From an uncultured Candidatus Peribacteria bacterium (GTDB lineage Bacteria > Patescibacteriota > Gracilibacteria > 1-14-2-50-48-13): a stretch of 64,000 bases of DNA. This document shows positions 7,580 to 62,728 of this stretch, piece by piece. Made by a program: the position numbers and the translations under genes. Position 1 is the first letter of the stretch. Every line of letters starts with the position of its first letter. The stretch spans positions 4,261 to 68,260 of the forward strand of contig CAYGEY010000001.1 of the NCBI GenBank assembly GCA_964349065.1, given 5' to 3'. The notes below the pieces were generated by a model, which saw only the letters and a list, made by a program, of their open reading frames with translations, had not been told where the DNA came from and did not search any database.

Positions 7580-8164
7580 ATGGAAAAACTCGCAATTGTT
7601 CATGCTCATTCTGGACTACCAACTGGTACAGTTCTTACTCGAAAGGAGGTCATAGAAAACGAGGCTTGCTGTATGTGTACCAGTGTCTATGTTTTAAATT
7701 CAAAAGGAGAAGTTCTTTGCCACCAAAGATCTCTCGGAAAAGAACGTTTCCCTGGACTTTGGTACACACACGTAGGAGGACATGTCGGTCATGATGAAAC
7801 ATACCACTCCAATGCCGTCAAAGAAGTAGAGGAAGAGATTGGCCTCAAGGTTAACCATGCAAAAATTATTCCATGGCGAACGACAAAAAACACTGAATCA
7901 AATTTTTGGGTACGGGAATTCGTCACAATTATTGATGTATGTATTGATGAACTTACTCCACAGCCCGGAGAAGTAGAAAAATTTGAATGGAAAACTCTTG
8001 AGCAAATTGAAGAAGAATCCGCACAAGATCCACATAAGTGGAAAGCCGGTACGCATGATTTCAGAACAGAATACTTCTGTATGAGATCTGTACTCACCGC
8101 TATGGATCACAAAGGAATATTTGAGGTGCCGAGGGATCAGCAAATTTGGGGACATCAAGAGTAA
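7580..8164 (+). CDS. Nudix hydrolase
   Basis: Nudix box GGHVGHDETYHSNAVKEVEEEIGL (GX5EX7REUXEEXGU pattern). Confidence 0.8.
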   Translation: MEKLAIVHAHSGLPTGTVLTRKEVIENEACCMCTSVYVLNSKGEVLCHQRSLGKERFPGLWYTHVGGHVGHDETYHSNAVKEVEEEIGLKVNHAKIIPWRTTKNTESNFWVREFVTIIDVCIDELTPQPGEVEKFEWKTLEQIEEESAQDPHKWKAGTHDFRTEYFCMRSVLTAMDHKGIFEVPRDQQIWGHQE

Positions 8165-8169
8165 GTCCA

Positions 8170-16105: not shown

Positions 16106-16543
16106 CTATTCAACCTTTATAGGATAACTAAACAGTGGTTTTGCATTTTTGCCGTCCACTTCAATCATCAAAATATCTCCGTCAGTTACCGTGTGGTCTG
16201 TGATATAGCAAGCGTCTGCAAGTTTTATTTGAGGCAACTCTAGAGATGTAATCAAAGAATAATGTCTATCCTCAGGACACCCGACATTTCTTCCAAATAC
16301 TCCAGGACAAGCATCCCAAAACATATCTTCAAACCCGTCACTATCTGTATCCTGACACCCGACCACACCATGAAACCTTTGATCAAGATTATAATAAAAA
16401 GGACAGAGATCTGCATCATCTTGAAAACCGTCATTATCTATGTCACTACCGGCAGCATAAGTAAAATGACCTATACTCAGTAATAAACAAAGAAAGAGTT
16501 TAACGAGTACCCGAAGGATCTGCACAGTCTGCGCCTTGAACAT
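16106..16543 (-). CDS. secreted Cys-rich protein with thrombospondin type-3-like Ca-binding motifs
   Basis: DIDNDGFQDDADLCP and DTDSDGFEDMFWDACP (DxDxDGxxD). The track start 16564 is TTG and the first ATG is at 16543, giving a signal peptide. Overlaps the upstream gene's stop (16500). Confidence 0.45.
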   Translation of the reverse strand: MFKAQTVQILRVLVKLFLCLLLSIGHFTYAAGSDIDNDGFQDDADLCPFYYNLDQRFHGVVGCQDTDSDGFEDMFWDACPGVFGRNVGCPEDRHYSLITSLELPQIKLADACYITDHTVTDGDILMIEVDGKNAKPLFSYPIKVE

Positions 16544-18161
16544 ATTGGTGGTTATGACAAACAAAGTTTAATCTCTTATATGCCTCCTCTGCAAGTGAAT
16601 TAATTCCTTGGCCATCATGAAATGAAGAGAACATGTTTCTCCAATAACTATTATGAAAGAAAGATAATGTATCCTGTCCGGCATTCTCATATGAGCTTTT
16701 GATGGATTCATAAAGTTTCCTTTCCTGGCATCTAGCCTCACTGGTAGCCACTAATGAGGATGAATAAATCTGCGTATAAACCTCCTGCGGAATAAAAGAA
16801 GCATTCAATTCGGTTTTTAAACTACAAGAAACGTTACCACTTTTTTGGATATTCGTAGTACTTTCTCCAGCCAGTATACTATTTTTTTGTAAGGCAGATT
16901 TCATACTCATAAGATCCTGCAGTTTTTTCAATTGATCCTTCACATCATTAAAGGCTTTCGTCACTTTCGCAATCGAGCCCTCAACTGTACTACTAAGCGC
17001 CTCCCACGTCTTCGTCAAAGTATCTCCTGCCTTAGTCACAGACTCGGTAATATCCGTCCACGCCGTACCGAAGCTCTCCATCACCTTCCCGAATTCACTT
17101 CCGGATGTCAGAAGCGAATCCCAAGACGCCGTTAATTGCTCAAGTTGAAACCCTGCAGGGTAACAGGCAGATATTTTTCCATCTTGAGATCTGGAAGGTG
17201 GAATAGGATTTGTATAAATATTTGCGGTGAATGGATTAATAAGTAGTCCGACCTTCACGGCGATTCTGATTTGAGTATCCCCACAATCCCCATCCTCATT
17301 CTGACATTTTTCTAAATCTAATAAAAGTGATGCATCTCCCAGTGTTGTTCGAAGTGTCACCAGGTTAGGGTACATCGACGGCTGTCGAGTCTTATACATT
17401 TTTCCCAAAAGCATACCGTATGTTTGATACAAAGTTTTTTTATAAATCGACGCAACTCCTGAAAGCCGCTCGATACCCACAGGCGTCGGAGCCAAATCTG
17501 TTTTATCAAGAACTGCTTTTTTCGCTTTAATAAAATCAGCATACAACGTTGAATACATCAAATATCGACCTAAAACAGATTGGTAGAGTGGTAGTTTTTT
17601 GTTATTCACATCAACATCCAACCAAAGTAGTGGATCACCCTTGGTATCCGCCCTCATACTACAAGTGAGAGATGATCGGTACGCTAACTCGCGAAGTTTC
17701 TCAAATTTCTGTGTTATTTCATCATTATCCAGATCAAACATTGCTGTATTGCCACTAAATGTTATCGCTAAAAACGAATCCACCCCCCCGGAAACATTTG
17801 CATTATAATCAATTATTTTTTTCACTTCCTCCCAGTTGGACATCAAAGAAGTAGACAGGATATCGGGTATGGGCTCTGCGTTTAGATTCATCCTCTGAGA
17901 AAGCGGAACAGGATCAAATGGATCTTTATAAATATCAAAACCCAATATTGTCTCTTTTGAAACACCGCACTGTTTTATACGACTATCAGTATTGCTGTCA
18001 TACTGATCTTCCACTTGTGCAATAAATGTATCCATATCTTCAATAAAAGCACGAGTTGTCACAGGTGATATGCAGGCACTTTGAAAGGTACCGGCGACAG
18101 CTACCCCAGTGGTAATAAATAGAACACACAGAGAACAAATTATTTTTAGTTTATTTACCAT
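16500..18161 (-). CDS. orphan secreted protein (553 aa)
   Basis: Signal peptide MVNKLKIICSLCVLFITTGVAVA. The ATG overlaps the upstream gene's 3' end by 11 nt. No family recognised. Confidence 0.65.
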   Translation of the reverse strand: MVNKLKIICSLCVLFITTGVAVAGTFQSACISPVTTRAFIEDMDTFIAQVEDQYDSNTDSRIKQCGVSKETILGFDIYKDPFDPVPLSQRMNLNAEPIPDILSTSLMSNWEEVKKIIDYNANVSGGVDSFLAITFSGNTAMFDLDNDEITQKFEKLRELAYRSSLTCSMRADTKGDPLLWLDVDVNNKKLPLYQSVLGRYLMYSTLYADFIKAKKAVLDKTDLAPTPVGIERLSGVASIYKKTLYQTYGMLLGKMYKTRQPSMYPNLVTLRTTLGDASLLLDLEKCQNEDGDCGDTQIRIAVKVGLLINPFTANIYTNPIPPSRSQDGKISACYPAGFQLEQLTASWDSLLTSGSEFGKVMESFGTAWTDITESVTKAGDTLTKTWEALSSTVEGSIAKVTKAFNDVKDQLKKLQDLMSMKSALQKNSILAGESTTNIQKSGNVSCSLKTELNASFIPQEVYTQIYSSSLVATSEARCQERKLYESIKSSYENAGQDTLSFFHNSYWRNMFSSFHDGQGINSLAEEAYKRLNFVCHNHQYVQGADCADPSGTR

Positions 18162-19905
18162 CTTTATTTTTACTTTTAATTATGGGGCTATTTGGAATTT
18201 TACTTATATCATCAAACGTTTTCATAAGTTTCTTAAGTTTCTCAAAACCTACAGTCATAGCATTCAGCTGTGCACCAATCAACTTTTGAAAAATGGGAAC
18301 ACTTTCGAGATAACTTCTAACGAGCGCGGTTTTTTTCATATTTTCCAAAGTTTGTTCATTCTCTTTCTGATACTGCTCAATCATCGATGTATAGGTTGTA
18401 ATATTTTCAGAATAATCCTCTTTATTCAGAATAAGCGAAATCTTGTCACTCAGTGAATCAATATTCTTTTTTGCATCTTTCAAGGTATCTGTCGTAAATA
18501 TCTGCGACGGCTGAAGGTTTGAAAAAATAGGAACACTGACGATATCAAACCGTGGTGGAATAAGGGTGAGTTCAAGTGAAGTAAAGCCAAGATCAAACAC
18601 TGCCCTTGGATATGATCTCGTCATATTGTTCTTATCATTCATCTGATTCGCGATATTTTTGAGACTGTCAAAATTTGTTACGATAGCAAGCGGCCGCATA
18701 ACTAATCCATAATCCGCAGGTTTGGGGCTACTGAAGACAAACTCAAGTTTTGCACATATATCAGCAAGAGCGTCAAAATATTTCTTACCGTCAGGACCCG
18801 CCTGCGCTTCTGGCCGAATGCATGCATTTTTATTAAAGTTTTCCTGAAACGTACGAATATTATTTTCGCCGATAAGTGTACCAACACCTCCAGTCACAAG
18901 ATTCAAAGCACCGGATGCGACATCCGATGTAGCTCCTACAGGATTCGGATATGTATCAAGCGGCTGTTTAAATCCTTGGGATAATTGTAAAAACGCATTC
19001 AGCGCCTGTGCACTATCTTGGTATTCTACCAACTTCTCAGCAATTCCCTGCTTCAGATTTGGTAAATCTACAGTATTGGTCTTGAGTTCCGGATTGAGCA
19101 AACACGCAGGAGCCTCTTGCTTCAGAGCAGTTTTCAAAGTACCTGCGACATCATTCACCTTCTTTGTCTTATCGACATCAGTACTTACAATAGATCCAAT
19201 GGAACTAAGTGATTTCTTTCCAAGTAATGTATCAACCAAGCCGGAATTTTGTTTAAAAAAATCATTGATCGTAATAATATTCCCACCTGAAAAAGCAGGA
19301 CTATCCTTGAGAAATCCGGTACCCTTGCGAGTAAAAAGTGAATTCTCAAGATTCGTTAACTCCGCGATATAATCATACCCGGAGTTACCGCTATCCCCGT
19401 CATTAAATAGATTGATATACTTCGCGAGTACAAACGTTGTACCAAAATCAATATTTCGAGTAAGCATCTGCTTCTGATCAGCCAACTCATTGAGATATAT
19501 TGCAACGCGCTGGGCATCATTCTGCCCGGTAAATGTACAACTATTTGCATCACATTTTTCAATGCCTCCCGGAATCTCCGGATCAGATCTACCATATTTC
19601 CCCATAAACTCCAACTTAGTCTGCGTCTTCGGGAAGTCTTCAATATCATTATAAACCCGAAGATACACATCCTCCAATTGGTTATCCTGGTACGGAAACT
19701 GAGCCTGGACCGGGACATTTTGTATCTGATTATTATGAGACTTCTCAAAATATTGTTCCGAGTTATACATTTCAATAATGTGCTCCAACTCTGTGTAGGC
19801 TTCATATCTACTTTGCACAACATCCGTAGCAGCAAGAACACTACCTGACTGCAGCAATGAAAAGATAATGACACCCAAATTGAGAATATGAAGTTTTTTT
19901 ATCAT
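18151..19905 (-). CDS. orphan secreted protein (584 aa)
   Basis: Signal peptide MIKKLHILNLGVIIFSLLQSGSVLA; ATGA start/stop overlap with the upstream gene (19902-19905). Confidence 0.65.
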   Translation of the reverse strand: MIKKLHILNLGVIIFSLLQSGSVLAATDVVQSRYEAYTELEHIIEMYNSEQYFEKSHNNQIQNVPVQAQFPYQDNQLEDVYLRVYNDIEDFPKTQTKLEFMGKYGRSDPEIPGGIEKCDANSCTFTGQNDAQRVAIYLNELADQKQMLTRNIDFGTTFVLAKYINLFNDGDSGNSGYDYIAELTNLENSLFTRKGTGFLKDSPAFSGGNIITINDFFKQNSGLVDTLLGKKSLSSIGSIVSTDVDKTKKVNDVAGTLKTALKQEAPACLLNPELKTNTVDLPNLKQGIAEKLVEYQDSAQALNAFLQLSQGFKQPLDTYPNPVGATSDVASGALNLVTGGVGTLIGENNIRTFQENFNKNACIRPEAQAGPDGKKYFDALADICAKLEFVFSSPKPADYGLVMRPLAIVTNFDSLKNIANQMNDKNNMTRSYPRAVFDLGFTSLELTLIPPRFDIVSVPIFSNLQPSQIFTTDTLKDAKKNIDSLSDKISLILNKEDYSENITTYTSMIEQYQKENEQTLENMKKTALVRSYLESVPIFQKLIGAQLNAMTVGFEKLKKLMKTFDDISKIPNSPIIKSKNKDGK

Positions 19906-21128
19906 TTTGGTTTTTTTACGTCCTTCGTGGCCGGGAATTTATTCACTAATGTGAGCCAAATACGGGTAATCTTGTCTATAGATGATTCAAGTTTTGTCAC
20001 TTCTGTTTCCAGTTTTTTGATCATCAGGTGCTCAGGGTATGTCAAAAGAAAATCATCAAACACTATGAGAGAAATATCTTTTGCCATACGAGCCTTTTCG
20101 ATCTCTTGTGCTGTCGATGTAACATCAGTGATATTTTGAGTAGTCCGTATACCATCATCTGCAATACCCGGAAACTTCAGCGGAGATTTGTTATTTGGAG
20201 CATTGTAGGAAACATTTCTTGCGGTATTAAACCAATTCTCGAATTCTAATTGGAACATAGCAGGCTTATCGGCAATATCCCGATTTTGCGTGAGAAACTC
20301 TGCATACGAGAGAAACTCGGATTCAATGATCTGGCGGAGAAAGACACTGGGATTACTTGTAGAATTCGGCCCCTGAAATTGTTCCAATTTCTTCTGATAG
20401 GTGTTATAAAAATCCTCTTCGCCACTAAGCTCTTCAATAAACCGAGTTTTTATAGTTGGATCTGAATTATAAATGGTACTCACATTATCAATCACATGTT
20501 GATTGATTATCCCTTGTCCGAAATAATCACTAAGGTTTTTCGGGATCGGAATTTCTTGTCCACCAAGCATAAGTCGGTCCGACTTAAAAACAATTGGGGA
20601 ATAACAAAACGGATCTAATGCAAACCGCTTCAATGACGAATTCTTAAAATATTCATCTTTTGGTTTATTCTGAGTTCCCAATGCTAAATTTGCAATACCT
20701 GCATTTACATCTGCCACCGCACCTATAACCGCATTATTTTCCTTTGTGCTATTCCCGTTTATTTTCTTTTCCTTCTCCTCATAATACTGTGCCGTCGCCA
20801 ACATAGCTGCATTCAGATAACAATTGATAGCATAATGATACATTTTAGGAACAATCACTTCAGCCCCAAGTGAATCCATCACATAAAAAGTTTTTATATC
20901 AGAATCTTTTTTGATTTCATATCTTGGAATATACTCACCCTTTTCAGGATCAGACGCATAAAAACTAACAGTAGATGCATCTTTCTTCGCATTTTCGATT
21001 ATATTCGTCACTGACTCAGATGCCGGATACAAGGTATATGGATAAAATATCTCTTCTGCCAAAGCAAAAGTAACATTCATACAACCAAAGGAAATCATCA
21101 AACTAACAGACAATAATTTTTTTATCAT
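19902..21128 (-). CDS. orphan secreted protein (408 aa)
   Basis: Signal peptide MIKKLLSVSLMISFGCMNVTFALA; ATGA overlap with the upstream gene (21125-21128). Confidence 0.65.
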   Translation of the reverse strand: MIKKLLSVSLMISFGCMNVTFALAEEIFYPYTLYPASESVTNIIENAKKDASTVSFYASDPEKGEYIPRYEIKKDSDIKTFYVMDSLGAEVIVPKMYHYAINCYLNAAMLATAQYYEEKEKKINGNSTKENNAVIGAVADVNAGIANLALGTQNKPKDEYFKNSSLKRFALDPFCYSPIVFKSDRLMLGGQEIPIPKNLSDYFGQGIINQHVIDNVSTIYNSDPTIKTRFIEELSGEEDFYNTYQKKLEQFQGPNSTSNPSVFLRQIIESEFLSYAEFLTQNRDIADKPAMFQLEFENWFNTARNVSYNAPNNKSPLKFPGIADDGIRTTQNITDVTSTAQEIEKARMAKDISLIVFDDFLLTYPEHLMIKKLETEVTKLESSIDKITRIWLTLVNKFPATKDVKKPK

Positions 21129-21739
21129 AATGGATCTTTTACAAGCTCATGGATGGTCTGTACGCCTTTACTTAGAGTTGTAAGTATTTCTTGTTGAAAA
21201 AACGTCAAAAATGTCTGAAATTTTGAAACAAATAACTCCAACCTCTTTGTCATGAAATATGTTTTTTGTTGAAAGATAATTCGATACAGAACTTCCTGTG
21301 CAATTATTTCTTCACGTTGATTTAAAAAACGTGCCTTTTCCTGGCAGGCAGCCGTAGATGAAGCTGTTCCTTCATGAGATACATCGATTGATATTATATT
21401 CCCTGACGCATCATACGTATTATTTTTGGCATCCAATTGCTGACATTCTGCGAAATCAGTAGCGAGATTGTTACAGTAGGAATCCAGATCATTGTGCAGA
21501 TTGCTCAGAGCATTTTTTGTATGCAGAACAACTTCCTGAGCCGCCATTGTTATTTGAATGGTAAATTTTTCAAGATCTGATTCAAACACATTCACTCGAT
21601 CCTGTAACTTACCTATAGCAAGATTTGTGCATGTTTGCGTGTCAGCGAAAGCAACTTGAAAAGTAGATCCCACAAGAAATGAAATGAGGATAGTTGATAT
21701 GATGTACCGAACTGTATTTTTTGTGTTTATGTTGAGCAT
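21125..21739 (-). CDS. orphan secreted/membrane-anchored helical protein (204 aa)
   Basis: N-terminal hydrophobic anchor IISTILISFLVGSTFQVAFA; 4 Cys. An extended -10 (TGgTATAAT on the minus strand, 21766-21774) lies upstream. Confidence 0.6.
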   Translation of the reverse strand: MLNINTKNTVRYIISTILISFLVGSTFQVAFADTQTCTNLAIGKLQDRVNVFESDLEKFTIQITMAAQEVVLHTKNALSNLHNDLDSYCNNLATDFAECQQLDAKNNTYDASGNIISIDVSHEGTASSTAACQEKARFLNQREEIIAQEVLYRIIFQQKTYFMTKRLELFVSKFQTFLTFFQQEILTTLSKGVQTIHELVKDPL

Positions 21740-21892
21740 TTTTTATATTGTCCTGATGTAGGTACATTATACCATAAACAGTAGGTTTTTTGCGAGGATT
21801 TCATTTTAAAATCCCCAAGAATTATTCTTCTGTTTTTTTGTACTTAAAAATCATTTCTACCTAGGGAGAAATTGTCCCCAGGTAAAGATCAA

Positions 21893-22993
21893 TTAGACCG
21901 GTATATTTTTGTACTCAATTTGTTGTATAGTACTACTTAATTTCTTCGGAGTTTCAATCGTAAAAAAATCCGGAGCAATCGTAGAAAGTATGATTTTCAA
22001 CGTAAACAGAAGCGCCAAACCGCTGAGTATTCGGATAAGATTACCAATCGCCTTTTTTTGAGCCTCTTCACTCCCTCCCATGAACATCATCTGAATCCCG
22101 GAAACCACCACTCCAATAATAGCTATTCCGATGAGAAGTGTTTGAATCGTTTGAAATGCAAAAAGTGCAAAACCCGCAACGACACCAATACTTCCGGTGT
22201 GCGTGAGGATGGCTTGGCAGAGTTTATTTTTTTGAGAAGAGTCAGCTAAATTTACTTGAAATATGTCCATAACTTTTGATGGTGGCATTCCCTTTGTTGT
22301 AGGTACCGGGGTACGACCAGTAAGTATTTCTTGAGTCACACTGACACAATACGAATCTTTCATACTTCCACTCAGTAAACTGACAGGAACAGGATCCAAA
22401 AAATCTGTACACGCTAAATCGATGTTTGTAGTATTTTGAGATGTAGCTTTTTCATTTTGAGTTTTAGTTGTACTAGAATCGGGACTTGTTGAATCAACCT
22501 TTGGTGGAGTTTGATTCAGATACAAACCTGTAGCATTATCAATTGCCCCTTTACCCGCAACACACTGCACAGTACTACTTTCTGATAGTGATGCTAATGC
22601 TATAGAAGCTAGTTCACAAGGGGTACCAAGCACACCCATACTCTGCATTTTCCCACTTTTCTCACCATAGAGTTTAGTAAAATCACAAGTAATCCCTCCA
22701 CCATTGCCAGTACAGCCATTTTTGTCACATTTAAATGCACTTAAATCAATCTGACAAACAGCATCAGACGGCTTCCAAACGCTATTTATTGGGGCAAAAA
22801 GAGGAGCTAAATCTTTTGAAGTATCACAGGTGTTTGTTGCACCTCCTGCAGCACCGGTGGTTCCTGTGTTGGGAGCGATTACATCAGGCTTACAAGTCTC
22901 TATACCATCTTTAAGAACACAAGCAGCTTCTGTAACATTCCCACCCATCATCACCAAACTAAATACCACACCAACCAATACTTTATTTCTCAT
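21893..22993 (-). CDS. Cys-rich surface protein with a C-terminal TrbC/VirB2-like (T4SS-pilin-type) two-helix domain
   Basis: The track start is TTG; first ATG at 22993 (MRNKVLVGVVFSLVMMGGNVTEA). The C-terminus IGVVAGFALFAFQTIQTLLIGIAIIGVVVSGIQMMFMGGSEEAQKKAIGNLIRILSGLALLFTLKII matches the helix-loop-helix pattern of VirB2/TrbC-like pilins common in CPR genomes. Confidence 0.55.
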   Translation of the reverse strand: MRNKVLVGVVFSLVMMGGNVTEAACVLKDGIETCKPDVIAPNTGTTGAAGGATNTCDTSKDLAPLFAPINSVWKPSDAVCQIDLSAFKCDKNGCTGNGGGITCDFTKLYGEKSGKMQSMGVLGTPCELASIALASLSESSTVQCVAGKGAIDNATGLYLNQTPPKVDSTSPDSSTTKTQNEKATSQNTTNIDLACTDFLDPVPVSLLSGSMKDSYCVSVTQEILTGRTPVPTTKGMPPSKVMDIFQVNLADSSQKNKLCQAILTHTGSIGVVAGFALFAFQTIQTLLIGIAIIGVVVSGIQMMFMGGSEEAQKKAIGNLIRILSGLALLFTLKIILSTIAPDFFTIETPKKLSSTIQQIEYKNIPV

Positions 22994-23010: not shown

Positions 23011-25356
23011 TTAACTCCCCCTCACAATAACCCCAACCCGGACCCAACCATCTTTCCCTTGTGCCATCCCAACTCCGATATTCAGCGTCCCCGCCAACTT
23101 TTGCACATCCGGCAACAACTCAGTTACCAGATCACTAATACTTCCCATCTCAAAAACGTAAAAATGATAACTCCCCGGCACATTCAAACTCTTCACTTTA
23201 TCCGAAACCTGCCCTCCACCTTTCGTCAAAAACGTCATTGCTTCTATACTCGCCTGATAATTTGCCCACTCCTGAGCAATCCCTTCAAGTGACAAATCCC
23301 TCGTGGTTGCAACTCCGGAATTTTTCAAATCACTAAGCAACTTTACAATCAAACCATTAATATCAGTACTAAGCGTTCTTGCTGAAAAATGCTGTACAAA
23401 ATACCAACGGTCCTTCCCCTTTGCTATCCCAATCCCAATGAGTTCAGAGCTAGGATCCATGATATTCGCATAATGCCCTGGACTATTATGCCAGCCAGTA
23501 TACACATCTTCCACGACATTCTCCGTCGAGTACGCAATATTCTCGGAAATTTGAGGAATATATCCATATTGATCTTTCCAATCATTAACAAATTTTCCAT
23601 CAGGATCAGCATGATCAAAATAACTTCTCGCCGCCATATCCTCCGCTTTATGTTGGGCCAATTTTGAAAGATCACTACTAAATGTTAATGCCTTTACTGA
23701 CTTCTGAGAACGGTCTGCATTTGAAAGCGTGACTATCTTTTGAACATCCGTTTGTCCCGTGAGGTTCGGAGAAGACAATAAACTGCTCCCAATAGTACCA
23801 GTCCCCGTACTCCCCACATAAATCCCCCCCATATCTTTATATTCCGTGTAAGCATCATGCGAAAATACAGTCGATCTATTTGCGACATCCACTTGCACAA
23901 CAATTGGTTTCGTTACATCAACTGCTGTTACATAACTTTTATCAATATCTACGCCTGCCTCATTTGTTGTATAAAATACTTGAGACTTTCCATCTTGTTC
24001 CAAAGTAAGTTTCACCAACATAGGCTCCAACGTTTTAGTCCAATTTACAGAGAGAATGGCCTTAGTTGAATCATAAGATGCTGAAACTTCTCCTGAATAT
24101 GTTGATGAAGTCAAATGCTTATTTGACAATGAAATACATCTTATAGAAAGAGTCTGAGTATCATTATTATTTGTTGAGATTACCACACTGTATTGCCCCT
24201 CACTTACAAAATATAGTGGAATTTTAAAATTCACTGCACCTGTATTAAATGTTTTCTTAAAAATTTCCGTACTTCCTTTTTTAAACGTAACATACACACG
24301 ACTTACTGACGCATCAGTCGTACCGGAAAGTTCTAAAATTTCACCGGGAAGAACCATATTTGGCATGTCATGATCAAATGTCACACCAGTTATTACATTC
24401 CGAGAATAGACCTTTTTCTCCATTTTAGATAATGAACCGGAAACTTTATAAACTCTCCCTTTGAATGAACCCTTTTGCGTCGGAAAAAGAGAAGAAAAAC
24501 TACTCTTTGACATATCTAAGATTCCCCCCTTACTAAAGGGGCCGCGATCATTGATACGAACGAGCGTACTTTGCATTGTTTCTTCCGCAACCACTGAAAC
24601 CCATGTTCCAAAAGGAAATGTTTGATGCGATCCTGTGAACAAATCAGCATTATATACCTCCCCGCTTGATGTCTTTTTTCCAGCTAAACCATCTGCATAA
24701 TATGAAATCATGCCTCCTTCAAAAGCCGGAAATGAATTCAAATGATTATCAGCAATATACAAAACACGATAAAGCATATCCGCAACAATCCCGCGCGTAG
24801 CACTTTCCGTCAGTGGCAAATCGGCTTCGTACGAGCCATCAACTATATTTTTTTGAAAAGCAAAAAGCAAGTACGGGGCATACCATTCCTTTGTGTTGAT
24901 GGCATATGTTGCATAAGCACTATCTGACAATGATGGAATCCCGATATTCCCGACTGTCATCAATATTTTCATCAATTCCACCAATTTAATTGGATCATTT
25001 GGCCGAAATGTCTTGTCTGCATATCCCTTCACATAGCCCATAGCATATGCATTTGAAACATACGGCATATACCAAGCGCCTTTTACAAGATCCGAAAGAG
25101 GTGGCGTAGGACTGTTATCCGTCGATTTTTTATATCCAACATAGAGCATTTTCAATGCTTCCGCCCTATTTATTGATTGATCCGGCTTAAATGTTCCATC
25201 AGCATATCCTCCTATAACACCCTTTGCTTTTAATTCCTCAATTGCTGTAAAATACGGTGAGTTCTCAGTCACATCAGAAAACGCAGCGGCCTGTGCACTT
25301 CCAATACAAGTAAACAGAAAGAACAAAAATATCAGGAATTTTTTTAGATACACCAT
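23011..25356 (-). CDS. SLH-anchored cell-wall protein with RlpA-like DPBB (lytic transglycosylase-like) and CAP/SCP (YkwD-like) domains
   Basis: First ATG at 25356 (MVYLKKFLIFLFF...). SLH repeats: FSDVTENSPYFTAIEELKAKGVIGGYADGTFKPDQSINRAEALKM. RlpA-like: SYYADGLAGKKTSSGEVYN...VRINDRGPF. CAP: HKAEDMAARSYFDHADPDG...GWHNSPGHYANIMDP. Confidence 0.75.
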   Translation of the reverse strand: MVYLKKFLIFLFFLFTCIGSAQAAAFSDVTENSPYFTAIEELKAKGVIGGYADGTFKPDQSINRAEALKMLYVGYKKSTDNSPTPPLSDLVKGAWYMPYVSNAYAMGYVKGYADKTFRPNDPIKLVELMKILMTVGNIGIPSLSDSAYATYAINTKEWYAPYLLFAFQKNIVDGSYEADLPLTESATRGIVADMLYRVLYIADNHLNSFPAFEGGMISYYADGLAGKKTSSGEVYNADLFTGSHQTFPFGTWVSVVAEETMQSTLVRINDRGPFSKGGILDMSKSSFSSLFPTQKGSFKGRVYKVSGSLSKMEKKVYSRNVITGVTFDHDMPNMVLPGEILELSGTTDASVSRVYVTFKKGSTEIFKKTFNTGAVNFKIPLYFVSEGQYSVVISTNNNDTQTLSIRCISLSNKHLTSSTYSGEVSASYDSTKAILSVNWTKTLEPMLVKLTLEQDGKSQVFYTTNEAGVDIDKSYVTAVDVTKPIVVQVDVANRSTVFSHDAYTEYKDMGGIYVGSTGTGTIGSSLLSSPNLTGQTDVQKIVTLSNADRSQKSVKALTFSSDLSKLAQHKAEDMAARSYFDHADPDGKFVNDWKDQYGYIPQISENIAYSTENVVEDVYTGWHNSPGHYANIMDPSSELIGIGIAKGKDRWYFVQHFSARTLSTDINGLIVKLLSDLKNSGVATTRDLSLEGIAQEWANYQASIEAMTFLTKGGGQVSDKVKSLNVPGSYHFYVFEMGSISDLVTELLPDVQKLAGTLNIGVGMAQGKDGWVRVGVIVRGS

Positions 25357-25510
25357 ATGCACTAGGATAAGAAGATTACAAAAAGTATACGCATATTTTA
25401 TGTACTGACAAACATTGTATAACAAATAATATTGAAATGTTGCAAAAGACTTCCCTTGCAAAGTGTATTGAAGACTTTTACTCTAGAAGTCGAAATATTA
25501 AACCTACGTT

Positions 25511-26518
25511 ATGGATATCCAGTCTTTTCTAAACAGCCAATACGCAAATAATTCTATACTTATGTATCTATACGCTCTAGGCGTGTTTATTGTCTTATTT
25601 ATATTTTTACTCATCATACAAAAAAAGAGCGGAAATAAAACACTCATCCAAAAGACCCTGAAAAGACTCCGAATTGAATTCATTTTTGCAATCACTTTGT
25701 ACACCGCTTCAGGACTTCTTGTACTACACAATACCCTCACTTCTGTTATTTTCGTCATATTCGGCATTTGTACTACGAGACAAATAGCAACATATCTATC
25801 ATTTACTATCGCACATTTCGGCGAAAAATACACCAAAGAATCAGGCGGAACCGATGTTACAAAAATTATATCCACAGGACTGAATATCATAATATGGGGA
25901 TTTGCAATTTTGCTTATACTTTCAAATATTGGAGTCAACATTAATAGCCTCATTGCCGGACTCGGGATAGGCGGTATTGCCATTGCCCTCGCAGTACAAA
26001 ATATTTTAGGAGACCTCTTCAGTTTTCTCACAATCCATTTTGATAAACCATTTAAAGAAGGTGATCTTGTAAAAATAGGCGGAACACTAGGTACGGTAAA
26101 AAAAATAGGTATTCGTTCAACCAGAATCAAAGCTGTTTCCGGCGAGGAGATCATAATATCAAACAAGGAAGTTATGTCCGCTCAAATCACTAATTACAAA
26201 CATACCAATACCCGCAAAATTACCTTCACCTTTGGAGTCGATAGCGAAACACCAACTGCCACCCTTCGGGAGATTCCGGAAATGATGAAATTGATCATCA
26301 ATGATATCGCCAATATTACATTTGAGCGATGTCATTTTGTTTCTATGAATGAAAAATCTTGTACATTTGAATCCGTATATGCGGTTTCTCATACCGACTT
26401 TGAAAATTATTTAGATGCCAATCAAGAAATTCTCTTTTCACTTCGCGATAAATGCTCAACAAAAGGAATTACTTTAACTCCACCTACAGAGCATATTTTT
26501 GTTGATAAAATAAAGTAA
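25511..26518 (+). CDS. mechanosensitive ion channel (MscS family)
   Basis: GIGGIAIALAVQNILGDLFSFLTIHFDKPFKEGDLVKIGGTLGTVKKIGIRSTRIK is the canonical MscS TM3/beta-domain. Confidence 0.85.
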   Translation: MDIQSFLNSQYANNSILMYLYALGVFIVLFIFLLIIQKKSGNKTLIQKTLKRLRIEFIFAITLYTASGLLVLHNTLTSVIFVIFGICTTRQIATYLSFTIAHFGEKYTKESGGTDVTKIISTGLNIIIWGFAILLILSNIGVNINSLIAGLGIGGIAIALAVQNILGDLFSFLTIHFDKPFKEGDLVKIGGTLGTVKKIGIRSTRIKAVSGEEIIISNKEVMSAQITNYKHTNTRKITFTFGVDSETPTATLREIPEMMKLIINDIANITFERCHFVSMNEKSCTFESVYAVSHTDFENYLDANQEILFSLRDKCSTKGITLTPPTEHIFVDKIK

Positions 26519-29894: not shown

Positions 29895-31163
29895 TTATTG
29901 TATAGCCTGATAAATAATTTCCGCCATATGTCCTCTTGTCACCTCATCTTTTGCATTGATACTCATTCGTGATAACAATTTCAACTCATTCGCCTTATCA
30001 ATATATGGCTGATACCATACTTCCACCCCATCATCTACTTTCGCCAAATTCATTACATTAATACTCATTTTTAAAGCTTCTGCGAAGTTTATCGTGTTGT
30101 CCGGATGAAAATTCCCATCCTTATACCCTTTCACAAAATTATTTGCTTTTGCATAACACACATAACCGTTAAACCACGTTCCCCCTGTCACATCGGTAAA
30201 ACAACTCTCGTTTTTACGTTTTTCAATTTCATTACGAGAACTATCACTCGACAGTAATAATATCTTCAGAAACTCTGCACGATTTACCTTAATCCCCGGC
30301 TTATAAGTACCATCTGCATACCCTTGAATTATATTTTTTTCTTTCAGATATTTCAAACTATCTGAATATGCATATGATTTCGGTACATCCATAAAACCGT
30401 AAAACTCATAACGGGAAGCCAAAAATGAAACAATTCCATTCATAATATTTTTGATTTTCTGGTCCGGTAATAATGTATCTGCAACATACATATGAAACGT
30501 TTTTACATACTTCTCTTCAGTGTATTTCGTACCAAGGGTCTTGGTCGCATATGCATTCCATGCTCCACTTTTTCCACTCTCAATAAAATACTTTATTCCT
30601 CCGAATATCCCCTTGGATGAATCATAAAACACCATCTGATAATAGATATCACCTGGAAAACTTTCACCGGACATATGAAAAAACCCAATCCCCTTTTTCT
30701 CTCCGGAAATCTCTATAAAATGAGCATTACTTGAACGCATATCCAAACTACCGTCCGGTAAATATATTTCCCGGCCGTCACTTCCTACTGACGAAAGAGG
30801 ATACCCACCTGAGATAAATTCACCATACGCCCTTAAAATTCCCAACATTTTATCAAGCTCAGGGTATTTAAAAACTAGCTCCTTAATATCTGCAACATCA
30901 TATAAGCGTATCTTCATACTATCTACTGTAAAATTCTTCCCATCCGGCATAAACACATACTTTTTTCCAGAAAGAAGATGACATATATTCGTATCTTGCA
31001 ACAGATCGTCACTATAGAGATGCGGTGAACATTCATACGATGAAGAAACTTTTCCAAAAATATCCAATACTTCAAAGGCCGTAGAATCTTTAAACGAGAC
31101 TATTTCTTTAGCAAAAGTCGTTGGCACGAGAAGAAGCAATAGTACGAGAAGTACTTTTTTCAT
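29895..31163 (-). CDS. SLH-domain surface protein
   Basis: Signal peptide MKKVLLVLLLLLVPTTFA. C-terminal SLH repeats FMDVPKSYAYSDSLKYLKEKNIIQGYADGTYKPGIKVNRAEFLKILL and FTDVTGGTWFNGYVCYAKANNFVKGYKDGNFHPDNTINFAEALKM. Confidence 0.7.
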   Translation of the reverse strand: MKKVLLVLLLLLVPTTFAKEIVSFKDSTAFEVLDIFGKVSSSYECSPHLYSDDLLQDTNICHLLSGKKYVFMPDGKNFTVDSMKIRLYDVADIKELVFKYPELDKMLGILRAYGEFISGGYPLSSVGSDGREIYLPDGSLDMRSSNAHFIEISGEKKGIGFFHMSGESFPGDIYYQMVFYDSSKGIFGGIKYFIESGKSGAWNAYATKTLGTKYTEEKYVKTFHMYVADTLLPDQKIKNIMNGIVSFLASRYEFYGFMDVPKSYAYSDSLKYLKEKNIIQGYADGTYKPGIKVNRAEFLKILLLSSDSSRNEIEKRKNESCFTDVTGGTWFNGYVCYAKANNFVKGYKDGNFHPDNTINFAEALKMSINVMNLAKVDDGVEVWYQPYIDKANELKLLSRMSINAKDEVTRGHMAEIIYQAIQ

Positions 31164-31241: not shown

Positions 31242-32093
31242 TTATTGAGAAGTAATACTTTTCTTTGGGTTATTCATTTGTAAGTAATTTTCCTTAGAAA
31301 TAACACTTCTTTTTATCTCACTTTCTGTTTGCTTTCTAGCATTACCCGCGACTCCTCCACCTCGTTTTGCAACTTTTTTATTTTCATCTATCCCTTTTGG
31401 TTTTTCAAGAAATGAAATTTCAGTAGTAACTTTTTCACCAAGCATCGTAAAAATAAGTTCCAGATCAGTCATATTGTCTCTCAAATTTGCTTTAGATTTT
31501 GTGGGTATATTTTTGTATTTCTTATACTCACTTGGCGTCATTCCAAAAGTCGCTTTAGAAATCTCAGCCGTCAAAATCGAATAATCTTTTTCATGAGTAA
31601 TGCCTCGTTCTTTCCATTCACTTGTTAAATTTTGGTGAATAGCAATTCCTCGCAGACGCTTATCAATCCAATCTTTTGAATAGCCTTTCTGCTCATATAG
31701 TCTTTTCATCCGATCTTGTGCTAATTCTGGATTTTCTATTTCATCTAATCGTTCTTTTCCAACTTCTGCTAACCACATTTTGAAGGGTTCAGCCTTTTTG
31801 CTTGGGATTGATTGAATAAGTCGAAAAGCATTTTTAGTATTTACACAATCAGTAAAGCGTTTTTTTCCATCCGCACTCACTAACTTCAACTGTCCCCAAA
31901 TTGGGGACAGTTGAAGTTCAATAAATTCCCTTTGTTTCAATTTCTCCCAATATTTCCTTGGATGTGGGCTATCCGTTAGTGCCTCAATTATATCCACAAC
32001 AGAATAAAACCATTCTTCATTATGCCAAATTCTACGAATTTCCTTTGATTCAAACAGGGCAAGTTGATTCTGTTTTTTAATCTTTTTAATCAT
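31242..32093 (-). CDS. BRO-N domain / DinD-like (phage antirepressor-like) protein
   Basis: FESKEIRRIWHNEEWFYSVVDIIEALT...FRLIQSIPSKKAEPFKMWLAEVGKERLDEIENPE is typical of Bro-N/DinD-like proteins. Confidence 0.65.
   Translation of the reverse strand: MIKKIKKQNQLALFESKEIRRIWHNEEWFYSVVDIIEALTDSPHPRKYWEKLKQREFIELQLSPIWGQLKLVSADGKKRFTDCVNTKNAFRLIQSIPSKKAEPFKMWLAEVGKERLDEIENPELAQDRMKRLYEQKGYSKDWIDKRLRGIAIHQNLTSEWKERGITHEKDYSILTAEISKATFGMTPSEYKKYKNIPTKSKANLRDNMTDLELIFTMLGEKVTTEISFLEKPKGIDENKKVAKRGGGVAGNARKQTESEIKRSVISKENYLQMNNPKKSITSQ
31882..31918. repeat. 37-nt perfect palindrome inside the BRO-N CDS
   Basis: AACTTCAACTGTCCCCAA-a-TTGGGGACAGTTGAAGTT (18-bp arms) encoding LQLSPIWGQLK. Confidence 0.9.
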
Positions 32094-35802: not shown

Positions 35803-38800
35803 ATGGACTCATTACTTCGGACCATGCGAACAAAGCTAGGAATGCTCATCAGCATACTAGTCTTAGCAGGAATAGCCTACCTCGGCGTACAGTTTTTAGG
35901 AGGCGGGTTACGATCAAGTCTCATATCGGATATGCCAGTATTGGAAACAGGAAAAGATCAAATTAGATTTTTCCGATCCTACTTTTTTGAAGGAGCAAGC
36001 TTAAAATCTCCAACAGGACAGAAATGGGAGCGAACTGCACAGAACATTGTTGAGAAAACTCCAACAGCTTCCGATCCAACATATACCATAACTACCAACC
36101 AAAGTGTGTCTGGTCAAGGAAGTTCAGAGAGAATTTTCAGAGATTGGAATATCTCAACAGATGATAATTTTGAAATTGAGGCAAAACTCAAAGTAAACAC
36201 TTCCCCATGTAAGATCCAAGGTGGAAGTTACATTTCATTTTCAAATGGAACGTCTATTAGTTATGTTCTCTTTTGTACAGATAAGATCTATGTTGGAGAT
36301 GCAACTCATCTCTTTAGTAGTGGATTTGATATAAATGCCACAACAAAAAGTGTGCCTTCAACTCTTAGTGCTGAAAAAACAATCCTTGTTCGTGTAAGAA
36401 ATGCTGATATTGAAATTCTTGAAAAACAAGGTGAGATATTTGTAAGTAAAGGAGTATTTGCAGGTGCTTTCTCTGCAACATCTTCAGGACAAAACCGTAT
36501 TGAGTTTGGTACTGACGTTCCATCCGGAACGGAGCATACATATTCAACAACATGGAATTATGTAAAAACGAAGGTATACCCTATAGATCAGTCAAAAGGA
36601 ATTACGTATTCTTATGATGCAACTAAGGGAACTTCTCCGATCAAACAAGGTTGGATCACAAGTGATACAACTCCCGCGGCTTCAAGTGGATCATATGCAC
36701 TTACTAGTACTGACTATGTCTTAAATGCAAATATTTCTGATAAAGATAAAGTAGTTATTGATACAGACCTGTCGGTTAATACACCTTGTGAATCAAGTAC
36801 AACAATACCATATCGAGCTGCTAATTTAGTACATGGATGGAGTAGAGCAAGTAGTAGTGTACCTTTAAATTTTAGTGGAACATTGTATATGCCTATGTGG
36901 GACGCCAATCAAGCATATTCTAATGGTGCCGGTACAGACTATACCTTTAATGCAAATTTTTCCCACTACAATTATGATCAGTTACCAAAACTCCAGATCA
37001 GTAATGGTCAAAATTTTACTGAATTACTATTTTGTAATAATCAGATTTTACTCTCTGACGGATATGGTACTAGGACAATTGATAATGCAGATTCTCTCAT
37101 AAAAACTTATCAAGAAGCATCCGCAACTACTCCAAATGGTACTTGGGATAACTATGGAAAGTTTGCTTATTGGATATATTCAAATAATTGGACATATAGA
37201 AACAATCATAAAATTATTTCAACCGATATTGATCTATCAACAAAAACAAATTTGAAAATTACACTTGAGAACAATCGACTGGAAGTCTATAAAAATGGTA
37301 TTTTACTTGCTGATATTCCATCAGGATATACTCAAAACATTCCTAATAATGTTAATAATGGGACAATTAATAAAGATAATAACTTTATCAGATTAGCTAA
37401 CTTCACAAATAAAAACTTTGTACTCTCCAAGCTAACAGCACAAATCACTGCTAATGAAGGTATACTTACATCATATTTCTTACAAGATCCAATCAAACGT
37501 GCATTTACAAAAGAAATAGGATATGATTTAAGAAATAATCTATCTGCTCCACTTGCCAATGCTCTTCCGGATTCTCAAAGTTTTACAATAGAAAAGGGCG
37601 CAACGGATATAACACAAACTATTACAGAGACTTCAGGAGTACGTAACCTAGAAGTTCGTGCTTCTGCAAACTCGTATGCAACATATTCATATCCATGGAA
37701 TACAGCAGATGGAGATATCATAGATATTGAAGCAAAATTTCAGGTGACAGATACAGCTTGCTCAACAACAGAATCAAATTACATTTCATTTTCTAATAGT
37801 GTAGGTAAGGGGTTTATAACCTTGTGTAAAGATAAACTTTATGTGGGTAACAAAGATCTTCCACTCAGCTCAACAAGCTATATCCCAACAACAGTTGCAG
37901 ATCAATATAAACTAACATTAGATAACACAAAACCATTCCAAACTCTATATATTCAAGTAAGTGGAAACACAATCGAAATATTTGCTGATAAAGAACGTAC
38001 TACCTCCCTCTTGAAATCAACAAATGCATTTATTCCTGAACTTAACACAACATCAGAAAATAAATTTACATTCGGTTCAAAGGCAATATCTGCAATAAGT
38101 ACTCCATCTGCTATCAAATGGTACTATGTTACATCATACATACGTCCAAAAGTAGCAAATAATACCAATGTACAATTTAATTACAATGCCAGTAATAGTA
38201 CAAAACCAACACCTCAGGATCAAGGATGGATCAATACACCTAACTTATTAGGTACAGTAAATAATGGGGCATATATTCCAAAACCGGATGAGACAAACAC
38301 ATTAGTGTGGGATGCAAATAACAAAGATGCATTAACTATAAATGTTGAAGTAAAAACCACAAGTACTTGTCCTGATCTCGTAAATGATAACTCGCAATTT
38401 GGTACTAAGCTTGCGGCGCTACCTTTCATACGTTTTTCAAACAACGACTCCCAATCATACCTATATTTTTGTAATAACAAAACTTATTACATAGATCCGA
38501 ACAAAGACAATGAAGAATGGTACACAGGTCCTACATTCCAGATGAATACTGACTGGATATCAAGATATTGTGGTTACTGGGGTGGTTCATGCGGATCGGT
38601 ATGGTATCTTACTCAAGCAATAGCCGGTACATTCTCCAGTTTATACCCTATTTCCTACCAAAACCTCAACTCATTCAACCGAGATAATACACAATTCCAA
38701 AAGTACACCATCAATATAAACAATGGTGACATCACTATTATAGATGCTACTTCAGGTGCTATTCTTGCCACATCACGAGGTGGCATGCTCATGAAGAACA

Positions 38801-41800
38801 CTCTCACCGATCAAAAGAGCCAACTCTCTTTCGGAGGAACACAACCTGCATCATGGAAATCAATCTCTGCTCAAATCACTCAAAAGATCCCTGTACCAGC
38901 AGGAATGCTTGAACTTAAAGTTGATGTAACAAAAGATAATTTAACGCTATCTCCACAGACACCTATTACTGGAACTGATGGAAATGTTAAATTTAAAGCT
39001 TCACTCAACCTTGCAAATATCCCAAGTCACATACCTGTGTACTTCTGCCAGACTGCAAGCGGAGCGGCTGAAGTTTGTCTTCAAATGATAAAAGACTCAA
39101 CCACATCTGTCTATACACTCGCGGATACGCAAATCCCGGTAGCAAAAACTGCTTCTTATGCATTTAGCATCAAGATCGACGAATCAAAAAAAGATACAGG
39201 AAACAATGGAACTATCAATGTTCAATACAGAAACAAAACTGATGCAAACAATGGAACAGACACCCCTTCCGGGTTAAAATCAACTATTACAACAAGTGGA
39301 ACTTCTACCACAGCTGTTGCCGATATTGTTACTCCATTTACCAGCATGTCAAAAATCTGTATTGCTAAAAAGACATCAGATACAACTTTCGATGCCGAAA
39401 TTTGTAAATCAGGTACAACGGATATTACCGAGAGAAATGACGGCGTCACTCATACATTCACTGCAACATTCAGTAGTTTGGTACCTGCCGCGCAATATCA
39501 AGTCATCTATTATGCAACTCGTAATGATGCAATATCCGGTACAGAAAAAAGACAAATCTTTACAATTGCTCAAACTGCTGAACTCATTTATGAGCCACTT
39601 ATCTTCATTCCAAATACAAACAAACCACAAGTATTTGTCTCTGAAAAATTACCGGTTCCTGTACCTACAACTGAACTTCCAGCGACAATGACATACACAA
39701 AGGTAAAAGATACGGCCGGAAATGATGTTTTAGAATGGACAGAAACGTGGACTACCGGTACAACCGAAGTTACATTATCTGACGGCTCAAAGAAAACAAT
39801 CACACGGGAAGGTGTGCCAGCAGATAGTGTCATATGGCTTTGTGTAACAACTTCTGCAGACACAACATATAAAAATAAAAAATGCAGCCAATTGAAACGA
39901 AAAGTAGCAACTGATGCATTTACATACACTACTGTTACTGACGGATCTATCCTCCCTCTCAACAAAACAGAAAACTACATTTGGAGAGTTGAGCAAGAAC
40001 CAGATCATCAAATATTACATACGATTGATCCAACCAGTCCTATCAAGATCACATATACTGCTCCAGTAGACCCTACCGCCGCCATTGTGCCATCTTATAG
40101 TATCTCCATTCAAGATGTGACTAATGGTTCAGCGAAAATAGTAATTGAAACAGTGAAGTACTATGCTCTTTCACAACTAATCTATAGTTTCAAAGACGCC
40201 GATGGATTAGACAATCCTACTACTATTGGAGGAACAAGCAGTAGTGTAATTAAAACAACGCGAACTGTAGAAGGAGCAGAGCCTACTACCGTGTACACAA
40301 TTACATTAAATAGCTTGTCGGCTTCAACAAATTACTCACTTACAAAAATAGCACTGAAAAAAGATGCTACTACAGCCGCAGTACTCAGTGATGTTCTCCC
40401 AGCCACTTCATTTACTACCCTTCCTCCAACCCCTGTGGTAGTTGCTCCAACACGTGAAGTACCAACTTCCGGTGGTACAACTCTTTCTACAGGAGCGGAT
40501 ATCATCGCACCAAGTGTTGCCATAACTAGTCCAAAAGCAAATATTACCTATGCAACAACACCTTCAATTACTGGTACAGCTACGGATAATGTGGAAGTAA
40601 CAAAAGTAGATCTAGAACTACGAAAAGATACACAATATCTTTCAGCAACAGGAACATGGAGCACAACGAAAGAATCTATCCCAGCAATCCTAGATAAAGT
40701 AGCTGGAACTTGGACCTATGCCCTACCTTCTACCGCACTTACCTCAGGTTCTACCTATTATCTCAAAGCAATTGCTACAGATAAGAGTAATATCGCTGCA
40801 AATACTTCTGAACTTCAGTTTGTTTACAATGCAGCATTTACTGACACAGAAAAACCAGTTGTGATGATCTTAGATCCTATTAATTCACAACATGTGAAAA
40901 CTCTTACTGATGTTACACTTTCTGCTACTGATAATACATTTATTGACACAGTAGAAGTAAGTATCAAAGACTCATCTACTGCGACAGATAGTTGGTCACC
41001 TACTATAAAAGCAGGTTCTACCTGGAAAGCTGATACTTCAAAAATTGTACTTACCTCCGGTAGAACATATGATGTCACTGCTAGAGCAAAAGATGCATAC
41101 GGGAATTATTCAGACATTACAGTTACATCAAAAATTAGTATTATCGCTGATAGCACGACTAATGACACTACTGCTCCAAAAGTAGGAATCAAAAACATCA
41201 CCGAAGGTTCAACGGTTGAATTAAAATCTCTGCAAGGATATGCATATGATATCCCAACATATGGTGTGATCAAAGAAGTAAATCTTTCAATTCAACAAAA
41301 AGTATCGCCTCAGGCATTCTTTAACCCGGACACAAATAAGTTTGATTCTTCTACTCCAAAAAATATTGTGGTAACTCTTACAAAAACTTCTGAACTAGCA
41401 ACCACAATCAAATCAGATGAAACAAATGGTGGGTTGGTATACACATGGAATTACAACATCCCAGCTACAGCTCTTTCTGACAATACTGATTATGTAATTC
41501 ATTTACTAGCTTTCGATGCGGTCAACACCACTCCGGGAAGTCTTGATGTTAATGTGAAACATAAGATTGCTCCTGTTGATACTGCAAACCCAACTGTTAC
41601 GATCTCCCCTGTAAGTGACGGAGTTATCAGTACAATATCTGGAACAACTTCTGATGACCTTTCAGGTGTTGTATCACTTGGTTATACCTTAGAAAAATTT
41701 GGTACCGGTCAATTCTACAATGCAACAACAAAATCATATGGAGTTACTATATCAAATCCTATCAATAAAATAAGTGATTCATACAACAATTGGTCAATTG

Positions 41801-48759: not shown

Positions 48760-48835
48760 TGGTGTTTTTTATAAAAGTAACATATAGAAATAATCACTAT
48801 GACAAATCAATGTCAATGAGGGTGTGGAAGAGTGG

Positions 48836-48863
48836 TTGACAAATCATATATATTTGTTAAAAT
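48836..48863 (+). promoter_or_regulatory. putative promoter of the 699-aa gene
   Basis: TTGACA (48836-48841), a 16-nt spacer, then TAAAAT (48858-48863). It lies inside the track's GTG-started ORF, arguing for the ATG at 48889 as the start. Confidence 0.45.
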
Positions 48864-48888
48864 AAGCTATAAATTTTACTGCCAACAA

Positions 48889-62477: not shown

Positions 62478-62728
62478 ACCCTCTTTTTTTAAAGAATCAA
62501 GAAAGGTTTTGTATACAATTTGTATGCAAAATATAAAATAATCTGAATACAATTTTTTAGCAATGAACACTTTTTTGACTCTAAAAAATCATTACCAATA
62601 GATAATATACGAAGATGTTATGAAAATAATCTAAGGCTAAAAAGCGCTTTTCCCTTTTGTTCTTGCACACTCTCAATTCGCAAACTATACTCTTGATATA
62701 ACCTCTTCAACTTAAAAATAATAATCAT

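Follow-up and report, generated by a model that had tools for sequence, protein, structure and literature searches.

The question raised by this locus was what is made by a chain of overlapping genes for exported proteins that resemble no known family, found in a stretch of 64,000 nucleotides (nt) from an uncultured Candidatus Peribacteria bacterium (GenBank assembly GCA_964349065.1, contig CAYGEY010000001.1; the whole stretch is called the window). A previous sequence-only reading of this DNA had described four such genes, here named A to D, as candidates for the subunits of an extracellular apparatus. The analysis pointed to five genes, A to E, which belong to a conserved block together with the gene of a wall protein (S) and one or two genes of pilin-like proteins (P1 and P2). 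The products A to E are tentatively read here as lineage-specific extracellular accessory subunits of a VirB2-type surface appendage resembling a type IV secretion system (T4SS), a possibility that is favoured without being regarded as firm. The five genes are the following:

21125-21739, minus strand: A, a 204-amino-acid (aa) exported protein with four conserved cysteines.
19902-21128, minus strand: B, a 408-aa exported protein that has a conserved cysteine pair and, at its C-terminus, a long helix with K(L/F)PxA as its last residues.
18151-19905, minus strand: C, a 584-aa exported protein with a conserved cysteine pair.
16500-18161, minus strand: D, a 553-aa exported protein with conserved cysteines, including a C-terminal Cx10C loop.
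16106-16543, minus strand: E, a 145-aa exported protein with thrombospondin-type-3-like repeats and a small cysteine-containing C-terminal domain.

The open reading frames of A to D (204, 408, 584 and 553 aa) were found at exactly the coordinates given before, as were the overlaps that chain them. A overlaps B, and B overlaps C, by the 4 nt ATGA, with the stop codon inside the start codon, and C overlaps D by 11 nt. The export of A to D was upheld, but the count of four secreted proteins rose to five, because E, whose length was measured from the ATG used by gene callers, likewise bears a signal peptide and, through a 44-nt overlap with D, is part of the same chain. One N-terminal hydrophobic segment was detected in each of A to D, with an AxA-type cleavage motif at its end, and no second one appeared in any of the four (19-residue windows, Kyte-Doolittle >1.6). 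The orthologues showed the same pattern, in agreement with the N-terminal signal or anchor, and the lack of other membrane segments, claimed earlier. The isoelectric points of A to D are 5.3-5.4, and the cysteines beyond the signal peptide number 4 in A, 2 in B, 5 in C and 10 in D. The possibility that A to D are lipoproteins was discarded, as a conserved lipobox cysteine is lacking.

Relatives were searched for with HMMER among 1.84 billion cluster representatives, using A, B and C as a single query and a cutoff of E 0.001. Eleven proteins were recovered: five relatives of C, two of B, one of A, two self matches and one 40-aa fragment whose sequence is that of the C-terminal end of B. A word-indexed homologue search returned only the query itself for C, and the query plus one relative for D; this relative, P0003, is 54% identical to D and keeps all ten cysteines of the mature protein. 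The orthologues, with their identity to the window protein, were:

A: P0013, P0028-32 and P0033 (the latter A fused to B); 18-27% identity.
B: P0009, P0015, P0023, P0025 and P0026; 21-26% identity.
C: P0007, P0010, P0011, P0012, P0014 and P0022; 21-30% identity.
D: P0003 and P0016-21; 21-26% identity among the related loci, P0003 standing separately at 54%.
Other proteins of the block: E, 38-43% identity; the YgjP-like protein, 29-35%; S, 33-40%.

With length, order, signal peptide and cysteines kept in these orthologues, A to D are evidently genuine genes. Their earlier description as orphans held as far as known families are concerned, but not in the strict sense: they apparently have relatives in eight or so related lineages, and appear confined to a very small clade. 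Signal peptides were found in nearly all of the orthologues, the few exceptions looking like truncated gene calls, and no internal membrane segment was present in any A-E orthologue. Each family retains its own cysteine set and short motifs, such as VP(R/K)xYHxAxNCY(L/V)xAAML in B, AKYxxxFxDGDxxNSGxD and VPIF in C, and an N-terminal CxxP(P/V)xT...M plus NPFxxxxY in D. The idea that A to D are paralogues of one another was dropped, since nothing significant was obtained by BLAST, phmmer or hhalign; the best cross-match, between A and C in hhalign, covered 33 columns with 3% probability.

The genes on both sides of A to E in the window also form part of the conserved block:

23011-25356, minus strand: S, a wall protein that is exported and has SLH repeats, a DPBB domain (RlpA-like lytic-transglycosylase fold) and a CAP/SCP domain.
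21893-22993, minus strand: P, a pilin-like protein of the P2 type (366 aa) with a signal peptide, a cysteine-rich ectodomain, a Ser/Thr-rich linker and two C-terminal membrane helices.
15441-16103, minus strand: a YgjP-like metallopeptidase-domain protein (PF01863, 8e-33) with an HExxH motif and no signal peptide.
14849-15430, minus strand: an EngB/YsxC-type GTPase (MMR_HSR1, 1e-16), the final gene of the block.

The common order was S-(P1)-(P2)-A-B-C-D-E-YgjP-EngB, with one or two pilin-like genes. It was intact in seven contigs from different samples, with G+C contents from 38% to 54.5%, and a partial block order was seen in two further fragments; the contigs came from ENA, Logan, JGI and one NCBI assembly (GCA_030430105.1). 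Homologues scattered without synteny had been named as an outcome adverse to the sequence-only reading, and what was found was a block intact in seven genomes. The linkage to a pilin-like gene and an SLH wall protein also stood, the order S-pilin(s)-A-B-C-D-E being invariant and the flanks shuffled. Outside the block, the genes vary by contig (ABC transporter, MscS, photolyase, MgtE, Mrr, prephenate dehydratase). Since the flanks differ among contigs while the block is constant, its conservation exceeds the background collinearity. S was the first gene wherever a contig holds the 5' end (loci L005, L006, L011 and L015; only its CAP end is contained in L007), and in the related loci a pilin-like gene was always directly upstream of A. 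The gene of E was found in 7 of 7 blocks with its small C-terminal domain conserved, three of them having a 77-79-aa form that consists of this domain only, and YgjP followed E, and EngB followed YgjP, in all seven loci. The junctions within the seven blocks were mostly overlaps or gaps of 12 nt or less, and this recurrence of overlaps or few-nt gaps in seven genomes is in line with the co-production proposed before. To our knowledge, the S-pilin-A-E block is not described in the literature surveyed.

In one of the genomes (L006, positions 8156-10000; GCA_030430105.1, JAUIFW010000007.1), A and B are a single 614-aa open reading frame, P0033, in which they are joined by a Ser/Thr-rich linker of ~90 residues. 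Such a fusion speaks for a physical association of A and B, and it is the strongest single hint that these two proteins may work in contact.

Two putative regulatory signals were located between the pilin-like gene and A:

21856-21886, minus strand: a terminator-like hairpin of 12 bp followed by a T-run, directly 3' of the pilin-like gene P.
21766-21774, minus strand: an extended -10 element, TGGTATAAT, 26 nt before the start codon of A.

The extended -10 element had already been reported, and it was found again at that place, though without a good -35, which is why a consensus promoter scan did not list it. The spacer between the pilin gene and A contains the same extended -10 in L004, as TGTGGTATAAT, and in L014 a hairpin with a T-run and then TGGTACAAT were found ahead of A. 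In L011 and L015, this spacer measures just 5-6 nt. The unit from A to EngB would thus have its own promoter in some genomes and in others be joined to the pilin unit. Pilus operons often have a terminator or attenuator behind the gene of an abundant pilin and the accessory genes after it, and the arrangement of hairpin and promoter may lend weak support to a pilin-accessory function of A to E.

The identity of the pilin-like proteins is central to this function. The sequence-only reading had called P a VirB2/TrbC-like protein; its adjacency to A was confirmed, while the label relies on sub-threshold Pfam matches. The hydrophobic segments of P, at residues 279-364, resemble those of VirB2/TrbC-type pilins, and the match of P to T4SS_pilin (PF18895; E=0.005) scored 17 bits, under the cutoff of 26.6. 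Orthologues of this P2 type were present in L004, L005, L006, L011 and L015. The window has only the long P2 type and lacks P1, a short pilin-like protein of 150-178 aa, which is in turn the only one in L007. P1 was located as follows:

7249-7701 of L005: short pilin-like protein P1.
326-832 of L007: short pilin-like protein P1.
6996-7484 of L011: short pilin-like protein P1.
7902-8438 of L015: short pilin-like protein P1.

No protein of the block is better conserved than P1 (44-67% identity among genomes), as would be expected of a major structural subunit, and the two-helix region of P1 matched that of P2 in hhalign (E=0.001). Matches to TrbC (PF04956) and/or T4SS_pilin (PF18895) were obtained with six of the ten P1/P2 members of the related loci, with E from 1.9e-5 to 0.09 and all below the gathering scores (the best, at E=1.9e-5, reached 25.2 bits against a cutoff of 27.9). 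The topology, a signal peptide plus two hydrophobic helices, also fits a VirB2/TrbC-type pilin. P1 and P2 are plausible candidates for VirB2-like pilins.

As regards S, the protein has 781 aa according to gene callers, its open reading frame reaching 25461, and it matched SLH (8.8e-26), DPBB_1 (1.3e-15) and CAP (1.3e-20) in Pfam. Its relatives in the PDB were PA4485, Sap SLH and an SCP protein. SLH repeats were absent from A to E and their orthologues and present in S and two other window proteins, encoded at 29895-31163 (minus strand) and at 35803-44196 (plus strand). The latter, a giant protein of 2797 aa, has no Pfam matches apart from a bacterial Ig domain and the SLH repeats at its C-terminus. 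At the other end of the chain, the repeats of E are of the calcium-binding DxDxDG type (Pfam TSP_3, E=0.001). The YgjP-like gene begins 2 nt after E and is separated from EngB by 10 nt; by this spacing it belongs to the transcription unit of A to E, yet it probably lies outside the extracellular set.

No domain had been recognised in A to D, and the searches agreed: nothing above noise was obtained for them in Pfam, NCBIfam or PHROGs, no recurring domain family emerged when the orthologues were scanned one by one, and no sequence match came from the PDB, either to single proteins or to family profiles. A phage origin of A to D was also rejected, PHROGs having given only weak tape-measure-like helical noise. 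AlphaFold models were built for mature A joined to mature B (13 alignment rows) and for D (8 alignment rows). The mean predicted local distance difference test (pLDDT) score was 57.8 in the first, where the part of A was moderately confident (60-89 over most of it), and 49.4 in the second, which exceeded 70 only in parts of the N-terminal 250 residues. A was modelled as a helical bundle with helices at 2-29, 35-58 and 60-74 and another of ~74 residues, plus a small beta hairpin, and B as confident islands plus a C-terminal helix of ~59 residues. Both models were largely helical; the long helical C-terminal stretches proposed earlier are backed only by these models of low to moderate confidence.

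When these models were compared by Foldseek (A+B against PDB and BFVD, D against PDB), nothing under E=0.07 was found, only generic long-helix matches. For A+B against PDB, the best E was 0.42, and neither TraC nor VirB5 was among the best 50. The comparison with known components that had been proposed therefore gave, with these weak models, no match to TraC/VirB5, PrgA or any pilus, T4SS or S-layer protein. Given the low confidence of the models, this means no evidence for a known fold, not a proven novel fold. Within the databases searched, and with models this weak, the A to D families are apparently new, matching no described family or solved fold.

The block was also compared with known pilin-based systems. 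According to the available part of a study on patescibacterial T4SS (PMC12102498), VirB2-like pilins are widespread in Patescibacteria, often in arrays of 2-11 genes, the pilin gene is near virB4 in only ~60% of the pilin-bearing assemblies (1,135/1,948) and T4SS genes are often near dnaA. The same part states that no adhesin was detected in its dataset and that the extracellular part of the system in single-membrane bacteria is undescribed (PMC12102498). The block is similar to those MPF-FATA-related pilin arrays in its one or two tandem two-helix pilin-like genes with TrbC/T4SS_pilin matches, in its chromosomal location, ~20 kb from dnaA and not on a mobile element, and in pilin genes lying apart from virB4, as that part of the study reports for many genomes (PMC12102498). 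It differs in that its pilin matches are under the gathering score, in that no VirB4, TrsD, VirB3 or VirB6 was found within tens of kb, and in A to E, exported non-pilin proteins which are not among the T4SS components given there (PMC12102498). The dnaA gene itself lies ~1.2 kb past the left end of the window (L016, 11720-13210; ENA contig k141_940037), which puts the probable replication origin at ~20 kb from the block. A mobile element was rejected as the nature of the block, which sits among core genes and has a uniform composition.

In the virB operons of diderm bacteria (Agrobacterium VirB, pKM101 Tra), VirB1 is a lytic transglycosylase, VirB2 the pilin and VirB5 a minor pilin or tip protein. 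The order of the block is alike, with a wall-lytic protein, a pilin and then A, a helical exported protein of ~200 aa, and the model of A, a helical bundle with a small non-helical appendage, recalls VirB5. In contrast, no Pfam match to the VirB5 family was found in six members of the A family, the PDB profile search was empty and TraC/VirB5 structures were not recovered by Foldseek with the moderately confident model of A, which would leave room for a remote fold relation. Furthermore, S has DPBB and CAP domains and not SLT or CHAP, and VirB3, B4 and B6-B11 do not follow downstream. Pfam families of VirB3/PrgI, VirB6/PrgH and VirB8/PrgL were absent from the block and its flanks, and A to E have no membrane segments past the signal peptide.

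Type IV pili have operons of minor pilins and a tip adhesin, of the fimU-pilVWXY1E type. The block shares with them several co-translated exported proteins of graded size beside a major pilin, but P is of the two-helix VirB2 kind and not a type IV pilin, and A to E lack a G/F-T-L-x-E leader. That A to E could be type IV prepilins was excluded, the N-termini in A to E and their orthologues being of the Sec type (positive, hydrophobic, AxA) with no class III leader. Sortase substrates were excluded too: the C-termini of A to E have no LPXTG followed by a hydrophobic segment and a charged tail, and no sortase family was found in the window or the related loci. In the monoderm conjugation system of pCF10, PrgA displays a CAP domain on a stalk at the surface (bioRxiv 10.1101/2020.06.18.156562). 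Elongated helical exported proteins encoded beside T4SS-type machinery would, by analogy, be a feature common to PrgA/PrgB/PrgC and A to E, and the surface CAP domain of PrgA may have a parallel in S. Unlike the Prg proteins, A to D have no CAP domain, LPXTG anchor or detectable similarity to them, and the CAP domain of the block is on the SLH-anchored S, which has no coiled-coil stalk.

Considering all of this, the export of A to E, their co-production, the tie of the block to a pilin and a wall protein, the fusion and the small clade are the grounds on which A to E are tentatively taken as accessory subunits of a pilin-based appendage, of the T4SS-like kind carried by many bacteria of the Patescibacteria type. 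Under that reading, A to E would be Sec-exported, disulfide-stabilised and largely alpha-helical proteins, made together from one transcription unit that would start just 3' of the terminator-like hairpin behind the VirB2/TrbC-like pilin gene. S, with its SLH, DPBB and CAP domains, would open and anchor a site in the wall, P1 and P2 would form or anchor the fibre, and A to E might assemble on them outside the membrane, where A and B would touch each other directly and the five could serve as parts of the base, the stalk, or the tip and adhesin. The hairpin and the internal promoter could yield much pilin and less accessory protein. That A to E physically assemble, associate with the pilin or take part in cell-cell contact is what we infer from this arrangement. 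As to the surface filament, adhesion or secretion role suggested by the sequence-only reading, nothing in the data, including the weak models, shows one, and the episymbiotic lifestyle is considered speculation.

Several observations speak against the accessory-subunit reading. A to D have no sequence likeness to any T4SS, pilus, adhesin or S-layer component, no fold likeness emerged from the weak models of A+B and D, and no pilin match of P1 or P2 attains the Pfam gathering score. The window, the next 10 kb to its left and the 10-kb flanks of six related loci yielded no VirB4, VirD4, VirB6, VirB3 or VirB8 family, nor any VirB4, CagE, AAA_10 or DUF87-type match (window open reading frames of at least 120 aa; precomputed Pfam lists for the six flanks). 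In the window, the terminator-like hairpin parts the pilin gene from A. In addition, E is linked by the same tight spacing to YgjP and EngB, which are cytoplasmic, and this makes coupling alone weak evidence for a common function, and compaction instead of shared function may be its cause. The window had been described as devoid of ATPases, which is not correct for its whole length: a 509-aa protein with a T2SSE-type domain (secretion/pilus ATPase superfamily) and a KH domain is encoded at 61041-62570 (minus strand), at 40 kb from the block.

The absence of a T4SS ATPase or channel gene nearby and the sub-threshold pilin matches would also suit a constitutive scaffold of the cell envelope or S-layer, unrelated to a T4SS pilus, in which A to E, made together with the SLH-anchored wall-remodelling protein, could for instance order the zone between membrane and S-layer, the pilin-like proteins being only membrane anchors. 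The genome is rich in SLH proteins, and the calcium-binding TSP3-like repeats of E are of a type usual in proteins of the matrix and envelope. The block also lies among housekeeping genes of the core chromosome and, judging by spacing, shares an operon with the essential GTPase EngB, which suggests constitutive expression. Nevertheless, A to E lack SLH or any other wall-binding domain, the TrbC/T4SS_pilin matches arise independently in six of the ten P members, and a family restricted to so small a clade (11 matches in 1.84 billion representatives) would be unusual for a basic envelope component; such a scaffold is considered rather unlikely. A further variant, judged distinctly unlikely, keeps the appendage but makes the block a self-contained and undescribed one of a rare, uncultivated lineage, for contact with partner cells; its fibre or stalk would consist of two-helix pilin-like proteins together with four or five novel-fold exported subunits, assembled through Sec and disulfides with no dedicated VirB4-type ATPase.

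The divergence of A to D (~18-29% identity) is faster than that of S (33-40%), E (38-43%) and YgjP (29-35%) in the same genome pairs, and together with export, richness in cysteines and no recognisable fold it would be compatible with secreted adhesins, toxins or nutrient-scavenging factors that interact with a host or act as effectors, evolve fast under pressure from that host, work individually and are near the pilin by co-regulation only. That explanation seems unlikely: A to D are single-copy and in fixed order in all the genomes, none of which has gained, lost or multiplied any of them, their stop and start codons overlap, A and B can be fused, and the conserved motifs do not look catalytic, showing only structural cysteines and aromatic residues. 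The same fusion argues against A to D being functionally unrelated exported proteins whose order was merely inherited in a clade of compact collinear genomes. SNase, AHSA1, DUF4352 and a Na/H exchanger do recur by the block in some relatives, and E, YgjP and EngB are joined by equally tight spacing, but the ten-gene block was never broken even where the flanks were rearranged, and at 20-35% protein identity random rearrangement would normally break an unselected ten-gene order. Mere inheritance of the order is thus very unlikely.

If the accessory function is correct, A to E, locked as they are to the pilins and the wall-anchored lytic/CAP protein, would be concrete candidates for the outer parts of a patescibacterial-type apparatus, and their families, tiny and without detectable relatives, would represent a solution particular to this lineage. 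Should the link to the pilin be wrong, they would still be a conserved operon of novel-fold envelope proteins, with an importance local to the clade.

Additionally, some features of the window outside the block were recorded. The cumulative GC skew drops monotonically over the whole window. A 220-aa open reading frame at 25504-26166 (minus strand) lies antisense within an MscS-type channel gene (25511-26518, plus strand) and is almost certainly no gene, and one of 718 aa at 48832-50988 (plus strand) matched no Pfam family at a cutoff of E 0.001. In a region otherwise made of core genes, a 283-aa protein with a BRO-N domain is encoded at 31242-32093 (minus strand); this domain is often associated with phages or mobile elements. 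The sole tRNA gene in the 64 kb is that of tRNA-Pro(TGG), at 10157-10232, and a transfer-messenger RNA gene (Rfam, 90 bits) with the tag peptide AKNTFARANDLLASAFGYSPVAA was located at 60259-60683 (minus strand).

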